From positions 85,427 through 149,426 of the IMG/VR virus record IMGVR_UViG_3300013121_000012: a stretch of DNA of 64,000 nucleotides, one strand, 5' to 3'. This DNA is from a virus. Its lineage: Duplodnaviria > Heunggongvirae > Uroviricota > Caudoviricetes. The position numbers and the translations under genes are program-made. Below the pieces are notes generated by a model, which made no database searches, was not told where the DNA came from, and was given only the letters and a program-made list of their open reading frames with translations. Shown in pieces: positions 1-11,996 of the stretch. Within the stretch, counting starts at the first letter, position 1. Each line of letters starts with the position of its first letter.

Positions 1-54
1 GTAGTCGAATAGACTCTTAATCTATGGGTCTCGGTTCAAGTCCGAGCGGGCCGA
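1..54 (+). tRNA. tRNA-Lys(CTT), 5' end cut by window edge
   Basis: Anticodon arm ATAGA-ctCTTaa-TCTAT; T arm CTCGG-ttcaagt-CCGAG; discriminator A54 followed by CA. Confidence 0.85.
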
Positions 55-5586: not shown

Positions 5587-5804
5587 ATAAAGCCACGATG
5601 ATGGCTTACGGATTGTATAAGCAATTCAAAAGTCTCGGAATGGTTACTGCAATAAAAACTGCAACACGTCAAACAAATTATCATTGGCAATTCCGAGGAC
5701 TTCCTTATCGCCAGATTGAAAAACATCTACGGAAGTGCATCGAATTAAAAGAAGGAAATAATGATAGATTACAATCTGCTAGCTCACTCGGCCAAGTTTT
5801 ATGA
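5526..5804 (+). CDS. Hypothetical protein (start probably 5598)
   Basis: ORF fills the gap between neighbours; overlaps both. Confidence 0.45.
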   Translation: MQAMQKQNNTSFYTSGSKHLDKATMMAYGLYKQFKSLGMVTAIKTATRQTNYHWQFRGLPYRQIEKHLRKCIELKEGNNDRLQSASSLGQVL

Positions 5805-6303
5805 AGAACATGGATTCAACAGAATAGAATCTCCGTGGACTGTTTCGAAAGCAGTCGATGATATTACTCGGCCGAGTGATAAGATTCCGTTTCAATTGGT
5901 TCACAATCAAAAGTGCCTAGTTGGGTCAGGTGAGCAATCATTCTTGTATTTGTATCTTAAAGGATTCCTTCCAAAAGGTAAATACCAAACAATAACTCCA
6001 TGTTTTCGTTATGAACAGTTTGATGAAACTCATACAAAGTATTTCATGAAGAATGAACTGATTGATACCAAGAAAACAGAAAGAGAAGACTTAATGAGAA
6101 TGGTTGATATTGCATACAAATTTTTCTGTTCCGTTTCAGTTAAAACACCAACAGTCAAGCAGACAAAAGAAGGATTCGATATTGAAATTAATGAAAAGGA
6201 GGTTGGAAGTTATGGTATTCGTGAATGCGAATTCCTCAAGTGGATCTATGGAACTGGATGCGCTGAACCAAGAACTTCTACAATATTAAATGGGTTATCA
6301 TAA
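5761..6303 (+). CDS. Stand-alone class II aminoacyl-tRNA-synthetase-like catalytic core
   Basis: GFNRIESPW (motif 1-like); LVGSGEQSF; PCFRYE..H.KYFMKNEL (motif 2-like); GTGCAEPR (motif 3-like); only 180 aa. Confidence 0.65.
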   Translation: MIDYNLLAHSAKFYEEHGFNRIESPWTVSKAVDDITRPSDKIPFQLVHNQKCLVGSGEQSFLYLYLKGFLPKGKYQTITPCFRYEQFDETHTKYFMKNELIDTKKTEREDLMRMVDIAYKFFCSVSVKTPTVKQTKEGFDIEINEKEVGSYGIRECEFLKWIYGTGCAEPRTSTILNGLS

Positions 6304-6545: not shown

Positions 6546-6616
6546 GCTCGCTTAGTTTAATGGTAGAATTTACCTTTTACATGGGCAAGACGGGGGTTCG
6601 ATTCCCTCAGCGAGCA
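6546..6616 (+). tRNA. tRNA-Val(TAC)
   Basis: Acceptor GCTCGCT/AGCGAGC; A73; anticodon loop ttTACat; T loop TTCGATT. Confidence 0.9.
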
Positions 6617-6866: not shown

Positions 6867-7427
6867 GTGCGTAGAACAAGACAGATTGAAATCGGAACAA
6901 AAGTCAACTTATATACTGTCATTTCTTACGATGAAAAATTAAGAAAATACATTTTAAGATGCGAGTGCGGATCAGAATCCAAAGTAAATTGCACTTACAT
7001 CAAGCAATCATTCACAAATAAAAACATACTTCTTGGTTGCAAAAATTGCACGAAGAATACAAAAAGAAAGCATCTTTGGTTAGATGATTTTGAAAGCGCA
7101 AAACGAAAAGTTTATTTGCGGTACAAATCTAAGGCCGAAGAAAGAGAATACTGTTTTGAATTAAACGAAAACGAATTCTTCAAAATAATACAAGAAAACT
7201 GTGTCTATTGTGGTCAAGAACCCAATATGGAATTGAAAGATTCCGGGAGAAACAGTTTTGATGGATTCAAATTCAATGGAGTTGATCGAACAGATAACTC
7301 TGTTGGATATGTTCTAGAAAATTCAGTTCCTTGTTGTAAGATTTGCAATATGGCAAAATCGACTCTAACAAAAACAGAATTTTTCGAATGGGTAAAAAGA
7401 GTTGTCAAACATAACAATCTTCTTTAA
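6867..7427 (+). mobile_element. Free-standing HNH-type (homing) endonuclease gene
   Basis: CVYCG..NGVDRTDNSVGYVLENSVPCCKICNMAK; N-terminal CECG; own promoter. Confidence 0.8.
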
Positions 7428-7454
7428 CAGACCATAAAATATAGTATAGGTCGT

Positions 7455-7491
7455 GAGCATCCCGAAAGCTCTCAAAAAAATTAGAAAGGAG
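7455..7491 (+). promoter_or_regulatory. Candidate NAD+-II-like (NMN/NAD+) translational riboswitch
   Basis: Stem GAGC/GCTC with loop ATCCCGAAA; A7 tract; then AAAGGAG Shine-Dalgarno whose GGA can pair with loop TCC; directly 5' of NAMPT. Confidence 0.5.
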
Positions 7492-7501
7492 TATATCCGA
7501 T

Positions 7502-8887
7502 ATGTACAACGATAACATACTTACGTGCACAGACGCGTATAAAGCAAGTCATCCGAATCTTTATCCTAAAGATGCTGATGCGGGCCGATGGTACATCGCG
7601 CCAAGAAAACCTCTGACAGGAAGACAAAAAGAATTCGTTCTCTTTGGTCTCACCTACTTCCGAGAAAAATTCCTCAAAAATCAAATCACACAAAAGAACA
7701 TCGATAAAGCTCGATTGATCTGGGACAAGTTTGGTATTGGTGGTGGAGCGTATCCATTTCCATACGAAGGCTTTCAAAAGGTCATAGACAAATACGATGG
7801 CTACCTTCCAGTGCGTATTCTGGGCGTCCCAGAAGGCACCCCTCAGACCGAATACAACGTACCGATGGTCATTGTTGAATGCGAGGATCCAGATCTGTTT
7901 TGGCTCCCAGGATTCATCGAAACTACAATTCAGCGCTATGTTTGGTATGCGAGCACTGTCGCAACTAACAGTCGCAACATCCGAAAATTCCTCACACAAC
8001 TTTACAAAGATACAACAGATGAAAAAGACTTCTGGACTCTCGACTACCGTCTCCATGATTTTGGTGCCCGCGGTGCTACTGTCGGCGAACAAGCCGCTTT
8101 AGGTGGTGCAGCGCATCTCATCAACTTCAAAGGAACTGACACGATGGAAGCAGTCGTTCTTCTGAACGAACTTTACAACATGCCAGTTGAAAAGATCGGT
8201 TGCAGTATTCCCGCAGCGGAACATAGCACGGTCACAAGTCACGGTAAAGATATCGCAGCAGAAAAGAAAGCTCTCTTTCAAATGATCGATGCTTACAAAG
8301 GAAAAGCTCCCTTGATTGCATTCGTCAGTGACAGCTACGACTACAAACGATTCGTCGATGAAGTCTGGTGTGCACCTGACACGATTGCTAAAATCCGCGA
8401 AGCAGGAATTCTTCCAGTCATTCGCCCAGATAGTGGTGATCCAAACGAAATGGTTCTTTATGCACTTCATGCCTGCGAGAAAGCTTGGGGAGTAACTCTC
8501 AATGAGAAAGGTTACAAAGTCCTCAACGGAATCAATATCATTCAAGGTGATGGTATGAGATACGAGACAATCGTCAAACTCTACAACGCAGTAGTTGAAG
8601 CTGGATTTGCTCCACAGAACGTTGCAGTCGGAATGGGCGGAGGATTACTTCAAGCATTCACGCGAGACGACATGAGCTGGAGTATGAAGATGTTCCAAAT
8701 CCGTCGTAACGGAATGTGGTACAATATCCAGAAGAATCCAAAAACAGCGAGTGCTAAGAAAGCGTGGAATCCAAACGACGGACTCGATGAAGCTAAGTAC
8801 ATCGTCTACTTCGACGGAGTGAATCCTCAGAACGAAGCAGAAGGAACAATGGACTTTGAAGCAATTCGCGCAAGGGCAGTAGTATGA
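7502..8887 (+). CDS. nadV: Nicotinamide phosphoribosyltransferase (NAMPT)
   Basis: TDAYKASH, LHDFGARG, SIPAAEHST, VSDSYD, IRPDSGDP, IIQGDG, GMGGGLLQ. Confidence 0.95.
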   Translation: MYNDNILTCTDAYKASHPNLYPKDADAGRWYIAPRKPLTGRQKEFVLFGLTYFREKFLKNQITQKNIDKARLIWDKFGIGGGAYPFPYEGFQKVIDKYDGYLPVRILGVPEGTPQTEYNVPMVIVECEDPDLFWLPGFIETTIQRYVWYASTVATNSRNIRKFLTQLYKDTTDEKDFWTLDYRLHDFGARGATVGEQAALGGAAHLINFKGTDTMEAVVLLNELYNMPVEKIGCSIPAAEHSTVTSHGKDIAAEKKALFQMIDAYKGKAPLIAFVSDSYDYKRFVDEVWCAPDTIAKIREAGILPVIRPDSGDPNEMVLYALHACEKAWGVTLNEKGYKVLNGINIIQGDGMRYETIVKLYNAVVEAGFAPQNVAVGMGGGLLQAFTRDDMSWSMKMFQIRRNGMWYNIQKNPKTASAKKAWNPNDGLDEAKYIVYFDGVNPQNEAEGTMDFEAIRARAVV

Positions 8888-9861
8888 AAGATCAAATCAT
8901 CCGTTCTTACAAACGCTTCAAACAGAAAGGTTACCCTAATTGGTACTGGGCAATCGACGTGCACGATGTAATTTTCATCGGAGACTACAAGGTCGATTGC
9001 GAACTCCGTTGGGTGCGAGATGCAAAGCGAGCTCTGAAAATTCTTGGAATGATTCCAGAAATCAAAGTCATCCTTTACACATCTACTCGAAAAGACAAGA
9101 CACAGGCGATCATCGATAAGATCCTCGCTGAAACGGGTCTTACGATTCACGGAGTCAACGAGAACCCGGATTTCATGAATGATCCATCTGGTTTGTGTGA
9201 GTTCGATAAGAAATTCTGCTTCGACGTTCTTTTGGACGACAAAGCTGGATTCGATGCAGCAAATCAATGGGAAGAAATTATCGAGGTTCTCATTGATCTC
9301 GGACTTGCGATGCCAAAAGAAGTTGCCGATCAACCGGCAGCTCAGAACAAATGGGTTTCTTTAAGAGAGAAAGTTATGGAGTTCGGCGGCAAACAATTCA
9401 AGTACATTTACTCACATGAAGACCGATGCGCTGGAAAGATCGTTGTTATTCTTCCTTATCGTAAGAATAAAGACGGCGAACGCGAATACCTTCTCACACG
9501 AGAACATAACTCTTTGTTTGGTTACAACTACACAGCAATCACTGGTGGAGTTGATGCAAAGACAACTGAAATGAAAAAGATACGAGAACAAGCGATTCTC
9601 GAACTTCAAGAAGAAACTGGGATTATGTCTGGTCTGCACTTCGTAAAGAAGTTCACATCAATCAAATCTTCAGACAATCAGTACTTCTTATTCTCTGAAG
9701 AGATTTCAAATGAAATGAGAATCTCTGTTACCGGAGACGGAAGTATCGAAGAGCTTCTTGTTGTAAAGAAGTGGATGAAACTAAAAGATGCACTCAAGGT
9801 TCTTAACGATCCTATTGCTCTTGCTTGTCTCATCACGTTAGAAAATACGGAGCTGAAATGA
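8884..9861 (+). CDS. HAD-like domain fused to a NUDIX hydrolase
   Basis: N-terminal AIDVHDVI, ILYTS, NENPD, LLDDKAG; C-terminal Nudix box TGGVD..ELQEETG. Confidence 0.7.
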   Translation: MKDQIIRSYKRFKQKGYPNWYWAIDVHDVIFIGDYKVDCELRWVRDAKRALKILGMIPEIKVILYTSTRKDKTQAIIDKILAETGLTIHGVNENPDFMNDPSGLCEFDKKFCFDVLLDDKAGFDAANQWEEIIEVLIDLGLAMPKEVADQPAAQNKWVSLREKVMEFGGKQFKYIYSHEDRCAGKIVVILPYRKNKDGEREYLLTREHNSLFGYNYTAITGGVDAKTTEMKKIREQAILELQEETGIMSGLHFVKKFTSIKSSDNQYFLFSEEISNEMRISVTGDGSIEELLVVKKWMKLKDALKVLNDPIALACLITLENTELK

Positions 9862-10652: not shown

Positions 10653-10941
10653 AGAAATCATCCAATGGAGTAAAGACAACTGGCCGAAGAGAAATCACGA
10701 GTCGGTTGAAAAGAAACTCATTGAAGAACTTGAAGAATTACTTCAAGCATTTAAAAATAAAGACGCACTGAACACAATCGAAGAAATCTTCGATGTGTAT
10801 GCGATGATCGTGGATTGGTGCAATCTGAATTGCGTCAAACTCGAAAACATATTCGAAGCAAAAAGAGAAATCATAGAATTCAGAAAAGTTTGGGGTAAAA
10901 TGCCAAACAAAGAACGAAAAATTCTGAGGAGCTATTTATGA
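10642..10941 (+). CDS. MazG-like nucleotide pyrophosphohydrolase
   Basis: KLIEELEELL..EEIFDV. Confidence 0.7.
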   Translation: MLNEEIIQWSKDNWPKRNHESVEKKLIEELEELLQAFKNKDALNTIEEIFDVYAMIVDWCNLNCVKLENIFEAKREIIEFRKVWGKMPNKERKILRSYL

Positions 10942-11996
10942 ACAACAAAGGATGGAGAGATATGGCGCCAACAAATGGTGATCGTATCCATTGCGTAATC
11001 GGAAGATTCCAGCCATTTCACACTGGTCACGAATATCTCGTAGACAAAGCGTGCGAACATGCCGATGTACTTATCGTATTCTTAGGAAGCGCTAATCATG
11101 CACAGACTTTCAAAAATCCTTTCACAGATTATGAACGTCAAATCATGATTGAAAGATACGTTAAAGAGAATCACCCGAAAGTCCGCGTACATTTCAAACC
11201 TGTTCCTGACTTTATCGACGACGTAGATTGGGCGAATTACATTAAGCGTGAAGTCGCAGACGTAAGAACAGAAAACGACACTGTCGTTCTATATGGATTT
11301 GAGAAAGACGCAACAAGCTACTATCTCAAATATTTTCCAGAATATCGGATGCACGAAGTAGAAGCGATTGCCCGAGCTGATGTAGGAATACTCGGAGCAA
11401 CACAAATCCGTGAGATGATTTACAAAGACGACGAAAACTGGAAAAAGTACGTCAGTGCTTATACACAAGAGAGAATTCTTCGATGGATGGAAACGGATGA
11501 GTATCAAAGAATACTCACTGAATACGAATTCACGATGAAGTACCGCGAACAATTCAAACCAGTCGCAGGAGAGAAATACAATATCACATTTACAACAGTT
11601 GACAATGTGATTTTCTGTGGCGGTGAAGTTGCAGTCATAAAGAGAAAAGAATATCCTGGTACAGGATTGCTAGCTCTTCCTGGTGGATTTCTTTTACCTG
11701 ATAAAACGCTTCGCAGAAGCGCGGATATTCATCTCGAAAAGAAAACAGGTATTGACATCACAACTGAAGAGCCAAAAAGATTCTTCGTTGTTGATAATCC
11801 TGATCGCAGCTTAAGAGGACGTACGGTTACGAATGTTTTTGTGTATGATTTGCCAGTTGAAAAATATTACAATTTACTTAAAAACAACAAGAACATTATT
11901 CTTAAAACTGCCGCTACTTTTGCTATTACGGATATCGCAAAATTCTTCGAAGATCACTTCCAAATTATCGTAAAAGCTGATAGAATGATCAGGTAA
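10938..11996 (+). CDS. nadM: NMN adenylyltransferase fused to a degenerate NUDIX domain (NadM-Nudix/NatV type)
   Basis: IGRFQPFHTGH, LGSAN..KNPFT..ER, GATQIR; C-terminal LALPGGF..HLEKKTG, PDRSLRGRTVT, FFEDHFQI. Confidence 0.92.
   Translation: MNNKGWRDMAPTNGDRIHCVIGRFQPFHTGHEYLVDKACEHADVLIVFLGSANHAQTFKNPFTDYERQIMIERYVKENHPKVRVHFKPVPDFIDDVDWANYIKREVADVRTENDTVVLYGFEKDATSYYLKYFPEYRMHEVEAIARADVGILGATQIREMIYKDDENWKKYVSAYTQERILRWMETDEYQRILTEYEFTMKYREQFKPVAGEKYNITFTTVDNVIFCGGEVAVIKRKEYPGTGLLALPGGFLLPDKTLRRSADIHLEKKTGIDITTEEPKRFFVVDNPDRSLRGRTVTNVFVYDLPVEKYYNLLKNNKNIILKTAATFAITDIAKFFEDHFQIIVKADRMIR

Follow-up and report, generated by a model that had tools for sequence, protein, structure and literature searches.

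A conserved structured leader before phage and bacterial nadV genes: a candidate riboswitch-like translational control element

The 64,000-nucleotide (nt) stretch analysed here (positions 85,427 to 149,426 of record IMGVR_UViG_3300013121_000012; below, the window) comes from a virus contig of 206.8 kb in IMG/VR and carries, on its plus strand, a nadV gene for a NAMPT protein (7502–8887). The 55 bases upstream of the nadV start contain what is very probably a real, conserved and structured cis-acting leader, in which two short helices, P1 and P2, covary among related phages and bacteria. Tentatively, we read it as a new riboswitch-like leader for translational control and a candidate sensor of a nicotinamide nucleotide, because NAD-salvage operons are normally under feedback regulation and small pseudoknot riboswitches of such a layout exist. 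The initial annotation of the window had proposed a riboswitch of the known NAD+-II class; the conserved, structured and nadV-specific RNA leader was borne out by comparison, whereas its assignment to that class was not.

Structure and conservation of the leader

On re-reading, the sequence and coordinates given in the initial annotation matched the window exactly. From 5' to 3' on the plus strand, the leader comprises a flank GGUCGU (7449–7454; GGUUGU in most relatives), the P1 5' arm GAGC (7455–7458), the P1 loop AUCCCGAAA (7459–7467) with TCC at 7460–7462, the P1 3' arm GCTC (GCUC in the RNA; 7468–7471), TC (7472–7473), a run of seven adenines (7474–7480), TTAG (7481–7484) and AAAGGAG (7485–7491), followed after 10 nt by the ATG (7502–7504). 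The A-rich linker (7481–7487) varies in length and sequence among members. It is followed by the P2 hairpin (7488–7498), in which the Shine-Dalgarno (SD) sequence GGA(G) (7488–7491) pairs with an anti-SD UCC (7496–7498) across a GUAUA loop. The gene behind the leader had been correctly recognized as NAMPT, with Pfam NAMPT_N and NAPRTase matches and a match to PHROG 448 at 2.5e-115. Folded as a single sequence, the leader reaches a minimum free energy of -12.9 kcal/mol (z = -1.49), a value equalled or bettered by 12 of 200 shuffled sequences; the hairpin alone is not beyond chance, and its significance comes from comparison.

A protein search retrieved a NAMPT clade 50–94% identical to the protein of the window, and the DNA around 12 of its members was compared. 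The leader, whose carriers encode NadV proteins 53–94% identical to that of the window, is present in at least nine phage-like metagenomic lineages and three bacterial genomes. Four syntenic phage lineages (NAMPT 94, 69, 67 and 66% identical) have nearly identical leaders of the form TATAGTATA(A)GGTCGTGAGCnnnnCnAAAGCTCTCAAA...AGGAGTATATCC(GA)TATG; in this group, identity to the window is 81–86% in the leader, 67–70% in the first 600 nt of the coding sequence and 54–69% in the 55 nt upstream. The same architecture precedes nadV in the bacterial carriers L010/G002, L093/G001 (a Leptonemataceae metagenome-assembled genome) and L257/G079; G001 and G002 have an NMNAT-NUDIX gene after nadV, so that the leader heads a nadV–nadM operon there. 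Further phage-like contigs with the leader before nadV are L290, L292, L295 and L296, together with the more divergent L011 and L345. A covariance model trained on seven leaders (R1) matched five unseen ones (L257, L290, L292, L295 and L296) with E values of 1e-8 to 1e-13, each match ending at the nadV start codon.

The NAMPT clade of the window (proteins P0001–P0041) is distinct and common to Leptonemataceae, Brevinema-type bacteria and phage-like contigs. Genes with the motif are scattered over its tree, which also holds a Brevinema subclade and two other lineages that are devoid of the motif. The expectation that the motif would stand before homologous nadV genes held in this close clade, in phages and the three bacteria, but failed beyond it: R1 found no match at about 240 nadV loci of the widespread clade with 40% identity, drawn from viral, genome and metagenome collections. 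Among 151 plus 42 Leptospirales genomes, strong matches occurred only in the two genomes that have a close-clade nadV; nadV of any kind is rare in the order of G001 (4 of 156 genomes), and in the order of G002 the element was seen in G002 only. Weak matches in Leptospirales (18–24 bits) were dismissed as noise, since they fall within or just ahead of genes for Band_7, DnaJ, LysR and GHMP-kinase proteins, and pattern scans of IMG/VR returned no additional full members. The gene association is confined to one nadV clade and includes neither several pathway genes nor independent acquisitions.

P1 changes its sequence while keeping its pairing (GAGC/GCUC, GAGU/GCUC, GGGUU/AACCC, GAGUU/AACUC, UGGU/ACCA, CGGUU/AAUCG, GGGU/ACCC and UUUAGUU/AACUAAA), ranges from 4 to 7 bp across members and has compensatory changes in three of its five pairs, with RNAalifold support for both arms. 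The P2 pairs 7488–7490/7496–7498 vary in the same manner (GGA/UCC, AGAG/CUCU, GGGG/CCCC, GGGA/UCCC, GAG/CUC, AGGU/ACCU and GGGU/ACCC), with compensatory changes in three of four pairs of a helix of 3–5 bp; the C-rich anti-SD lies 0–4 nt 5' of the AUG, and SD and anti-SD pair in 12 of 14 members. In an alignment of 13 sequences that was fitted to the model, 87.7% of the cells of P1 and P2 are paired, six pairs distributed over both helices show double changes, and the covariation score is 0.417, compared with 0.186 in shuffles (none of 500 as high) and a maximum of 0.105 with slid partners. RNAalifold predicts both helices from the model-fitted alignment A5, and the P1 covariation likewise appears when the 5' half is aligned with MAFFT alone. 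Covariation before nadV homologues, which the initial annotation had named as a check, is present in both helices and scores above every shuffle. It constitutes good evidence for P1 and P2, if not overwhelming evidence because the sequences are related and few.

The unpaired positions around P1 are also conserved. In alignments A5–A7 the columns of the 5' flank are invariant or nearly so, and the 3' AAA of the loop is retained; the family-wide loop consensus is (A/U)UYCCnAAA, with C7462 invariant in 13 of 13 leaders and C7463 replaced only in L295 and L345, by U. Directly 3' of P1, all members have UC followed by three to seven adenines, and 12 of 13 members keep the UCAAA with which this tail and A-run begin (7472–7480), independently of the sequence of P1. 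The A5 strand of NAD+-II (PMC10085692, PMC9841397) offers a model for this tail, which may run as an A-minor strand along the minor groove of P1; alternatively, it may pair with the UUGU of the 5' flank and extend P1. Two generic marks of riboswitches are present: unpaired nucleotides that are conserved and set between covarying helices in a 5' untranslated region, and an SD sequestered in a hairpin (here P2).

This pattern bears on two readings that dispense with a metabolite. In the first, the leader would be constitutive, its 5' hairpin protecting the mRNA from 5'-end-dependent decay and its A/C-rich stretch offering a standby site before a weakly structured SD, with no sensing involved. 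A probable distance of about 6 nt between transcription start and hairpin, linkers that are A-rich or made of CAA repeats, the shortness of P2 and the unexceptional single-sequence fold all suit this account. However, a stabilizer needs no conserved loop CC, AAA, GGUYGU and UCAAA across bacteria and phages while its stem covaries, and the conservation of the leader exceeds that of the coding sequence; we regard a purely constitutive role as rather unlikely. Also unlikely, if a little easier to entertain, is a translational operator on which a protein would recognize the loop and conserved flanks of P1 and stabilize the SD hairpin, be it NAMPT or the NMNAT-Nudix protein in autoregulation or a host RNA-binding factor. 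Phage translational operators of similar size are classical (T4 gp32, gp43 and RegA), a conserved loop with conserved flanks on a covarying stem would be the signature of a protein-binding operator as well, and the element is tied to, and co-inherited with, a single operon. By contrast, Pfam and PHROG annotation shows no RNA-binding domain in the operon proteins, and the leader remains constant across lineages that have different genes between nadV and that for NMNAT.

A putative -10 promoter region, AATATA/TATAGT (7438–7445, plus strand), probably lies 3–5 nt 5' of the conserved GG; TATAGT matches the -10 box at five of six positions and lies 3 nt 5' of G7449. Two bacterial members have clear sigma70 promoters, TTGCCA-17-TATATT in L010 and TTGTCG-17-TATATT in L257, which end 6–7 nt before the GG, and most phage-like leaders have a -10-like box 2–9 nt 5' of it; none was found before the GG of L011, L093 and L296. 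Since these promoters and boxes end just before the GG, G7449 is probably the 5' end of the mRNA.

Hairpins that resemble the 5' half of the nadV leader, of the form AAAGGTTGTGGGTGAnCC..AAAACCCTC(A/G)AAAA, occur in unrelated IMG/VR contigs (L297, 2998–3027; L299, 3069–3098 and 8785–8814; L303, 1630–1659) at one or two copies per contig, scoring about 29 bits with model R2. Behind every copy come TTGACT-N17-TATNNT and the nearly leaderless ATG of a small open reading frame (ORF) without an assigned function. They may reflect a chance resemblance or a related regulatory hairpin, and the group is possibly fortuitous. A generic promoter or leader cassette present in repeats was ruled out, because searches with sequence blocks and with R2 find the leader only once in the phage genome of 206.8 kb.

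The position of the element directly 3' of -10-like boxes, and that of the half-motif hairpins just 5' of promoters in L297, L299 and L303, could also be accommodated by a site acting in DNA, either an operator for a transcription factor of NAD metabolism (of the NrtR, NiaR or NadR type) or a generic phage hairpin-promoter cassette. We consider this very improbable: the stems covary in a way that preserves complementarity, as is characteristic of RNA, P2 is bound up with the SD and the start codon, and matches of about 29 bits are expected by chance in a collection of about 1e11 nt, with unrelated genes 3' of the half-motifs.

Relation to NAD+-II and preQ1-I riboswitches

The NAD+-II riboswitch, or pnuC motif (Panchapakesan et al. 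2021, PMC7749635), is known from structures (PMC10085692, PMC9841397). Its Streptococcus parasanguinis representative reads AGAGC-GUUGCG-UCC-G-AAA-(P1a)-ACG-GCUC-UUU-AAAAA-CAAAA-GGAGA (PMC10085692), and against this published sequence the NAD+-II features named in the initial annotation proved accurate. The structures show that sensing of nicotinamide mononucleotide (NMN) is possible with a P1, an A-rich strand and a pseudoknot to the SD (PMC9841397, PMC10085692). The high-affinity NMN pocket is built by J1 G6–G11, A31–G33 and C46, with tetrads from J1 G6–G11 above the ligand and G33:C46 contacting the nicotinamide (PMC10085692, PMC9841397); the mutations G33A and C46U abolish ligand-dependent assembly (PMC10085692). 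A second, weaker NMN site lies in the pseudoknot helix and involves C10, U12–C14 and G51–G54 (PMC10085692).

If the nadV leader were a (mini-)NAD+-II riboswitch, its GAGC/GCUC P1 would be accompanied by an H-type pseudoknot between the loop UCC and the SD GGA, the A-strand would occupy the minor groove, and NMN or NAD+ would shut off translation. Several features agree. The leader of the window shares with NAD+-II the elements GAGC/GCUC, UCC(C)GAAA, a pyrimidine turn before an A-run and AAA-GGAG, in the same order; both are short leaders of NAD-salvage genes with a 4-bp P1 and a ribosome-binding site complementary to UCC, and both presumably act on translation. In local alignment to a NAD+-II assembly without P1a, the window (z = 4.3) and L006 (z = 5.6) reach significance, engineered aptamers lacking P1a still bind NMN (Xu et al., PMC9841397), and equivalents of the weaker second site (C-A-U-C-C and GGAG) are present (PMC10085692).

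The differences include the nucleotides of the high-affinity pocket. Where NAD+-II has the J1 strand GUUGCG, the leader has one nucleotide (A7459) between P1 and UCC; its 9-nt loop leaves no room for a P1a helix; AAA takes the place of A31-C32-G33 (ACG); and no conserved equivalent of C46 follows the A-run. With J1, P1a, A31-C32-G33 and C46 missing, a high-affinity NMN pocket (site 1) of the same form is impossible. In the leader, UCC is part of a terminal loop rather than in the internal bubble of NAD+-II, and the leader has, in addition, the covarying SD/anti-SD hairpin P2 and the conserved 5' GGUYGU. Whereas NAD+-II is associated with pnuC, in Streptococcus, the leader accompanies nadV in Leptospirales-type bacteria and phages. 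The similarity is also not a property of the family: z falls below 2 in L010, L257, L296, L290, L292 and L093, and, as P1 covaries, GAGC/GCUC is an accident of the phage lineage of the window. The loop:SD helix is short in part of the family and forms no better with a leader's own loop than with a swapped one (see below).

Searches of Rfam 15, which was not confirmed to hold a NAD+-II model, gave no riboswitch family in positions 7300–7650 at E ≤ 10 (only noise, namely mir-786, CRISPR-DR17 and a long non-coding RNA) or in 11 homologous leaders at E ≤ 1; a scan of the whole window was equally devoid of riboswitch families. Membership in NAD+-II, as originally proposed, is improbable; judged by these comparisons, the leader is not a member of that class, but resembles the scaffold of P1, A-strand and SD that NAD+-II shares with preQ1-I.

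With preQ1-I, an H-type pseudoknot of about 34 nt, the leader has its approximate size and its layout in common: P1 is a short hairpin, the tail is rich in A and C (UCAAACAACAACAAGGAG is one example), and a 3' SD could pair with the loop cytosines. It differs in its conserved loop nucleotides, in a gene context that is not that of queuosine and in an SD that is already held in the local hairpin P2; neither the window region nor the 11 homologous leaders gave an Rfam match to preQ1-I. At the level of the operon, the NAMPT and NMNAT-Nudix-like genes 3' of the leader correspond to phage NAD+ reconstitution pathway 2 (NAMPT plus NMNAT, of the KVP40 NadV/NatV type). By contrast, the literature searched describes no RNA leader or riboswitch in pathway 2 operons, the roughly 240 loci of the common nadV clade have no such motif, and literature searches for a riboswitch of nadV/NAMPT, or for a third class sensing NAD+, produced nothing relevant.

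Proposed contacts of the loop and a possible switch

The initial annotation had envisaged a pseudoknot between the loop TCC (7460–7462) and GGA (7488–7490) of the SD. The complementarity is indeed there, with 3 bp in the window, but covariation does not support the contact. Across the family the best loop:SD helix has 2–5 bp (2–3 bp in the window, L290, L292 and L011), and a leader's own loop pairs with its SD no better than a swapped one (3.8 compared with 4.2 bp; -4.29 compared with -4.30 kcal/mol). Three members share the SD GAGGUAGA, which the loop fits in L010 (UUACC) and not in L290 and L292 (UUCC). Covariation of loop and SD is not possible where the nucleotides are invariant, and the pseudoknot is best described as possible.

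A second partner for the loop is the 5'-terminal GG. The pairs G7449:C7463 and G7450:C7462 can form in 13 of 13 sequences; only L295 and L345 have A at the first GG position, the same two alone have U at its partner, and they are not sisters on the NAMPT tree. Pairing of the GG with the loop CC is suggestive but weak on this count. As a third option, P1 could be extended by UUG/CAA across a U-U mismatch (G-U in L290, U-A in L345); these positions (alignment pairs 7-33, 8-32 and 9-31) are mostly conserved without covariation, so that the extension is founded mainly on invariant bases.

In the riboswitch-like reading that we prefer, the leader would be the nadV mRNA's 5' untranslated region, inherited with the gene and acting on translation initiation. 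P1 and the conserved unpaired nucleotides would form a small sensor domain, and P2 the expression platform. A metabolite of the NAD pathway, with NMN, NAD+ and nicotinamide as the obvious candidates, would bind and thereby fix a tertiary contact of the loop CC with either the SD GG or the 5'-terminal GG; this contact would alter the ease with which the ribosome opens the SD and so provide feedback control of NAD salvage. The leader would act in the manner of small translational riboswitches with an H-type pseudoknot, such as NAD+-II and preQ1-I, while belonging to neither. Regulator and gene evidently travel together in phages, which may have captured nadV along with a bacterial-type regulator.

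Several observations count against such a sensor. The sensor would measure about 30 nt and has few conserved unpaired positions, and only about 14 distinct leader sequences are available, all phylogenetically related. The element always travels with one gene family, so the gene association is no independent evidence for a metabolite ligand. The covariation test of loop and SD across leaders was null, and as P2 already sequesters the SD, a loop:SD pseudoknot would have no obvious switching effect. L345 keeps P1, but its loop CC has become CU and a C-rich anti-SD is absent; half-motif hairpins also stand before promoters in unrelated viral contigs. Finally, the reading is drawn from sequence comparison, and both the ligand and the regulation are putative.

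The NAD-salvage locus and its implications

By its gene content, the locus is a NAD-salvage cluster of the NAMPT plus NMNAT kind. It begins with nadV and ends with an NMNAT-Nudix-like gene (10938–11996; Pfam CTP_transf_like and a weak NUDIX match, with PHROGs for cytidyltransferase/NMNAT), and between the two lie an ORF of 325 amino acids, a nucleoside 2-deoxyribosyltransferase-like gene and a MazG/PRA-PH-like gene. The 325-residue ORF (8884–9861, plus strand) is coupled in translation to nadV, belongs to no Pfam family and matches only a phosphoheptose isomerase PHROG, weakly; it is kept in the syntenic phages L002, L005, L006 and L008 (321–329 residues), and other motif-bearing contigs have different genes at its position, for example AstE_AspA-like or RyR-domain genes.

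Directly 5' of the leader is a free-standing HNH/endonuclease VII-like ORF (6867–7427, plus strand) that matches PHROGs 1035, 3322 and 3118 and has no Pfam match. Homologues occupy the same position in L002–L004 and L008 and are absent there in L005 and L006; the ORF looks like a mobile endonuclease inserted beside the conserved leader. Four tRNA genes at the Rfam gathering score are found on the plus strand of the window (1–54, 71–142, 310–391 and 6546–6616), one of them about 250 nt 5' of the HNH ORF. An ORF of 180 amino acids (5761–6303, plus strand) has a borderline match to Pfam tRNA-synt_2, the core of class II aminoacyl-tRNA synthetases (25.1 bits, with a cut-off of 25), and may encode a truncated synthetase-like phage protein. 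Among catalogued phages no close relative was found, DNA similarity being limited to a tRNA.

In its fullest form, the proposal would have the sensor of about 30 nt and the SD hairpin constitute an undescribed riboswitch class whose ligand is a nicotinamide nucleotide and which controls the translation of nadV–nadM operons, with jumbo-type phages having captured both gene and regulator, and with their NAD+-reconstitution pathway, directed against NADase defences, being switched on when host defences deplete NAD+ or NMN. This complete scenario, built on comparative evidence, is somewhat doubtful. In the literature searched, no RNA regulator is described for nadV/NAMPT or for phage NAD+-reconstitution operons. 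Even if the leader were bound by a protein, it would be a covariation-supported RNA motif absent from Rfam that phages carry with an auxiliary metabolic gene. If it does sense NAD+ or NMN, it would be a third, minimal natural solution for the sensing of nicotinamide nucleotides, and the first phage counter-defence pathway wired to the very metabolite that the defence destroys.

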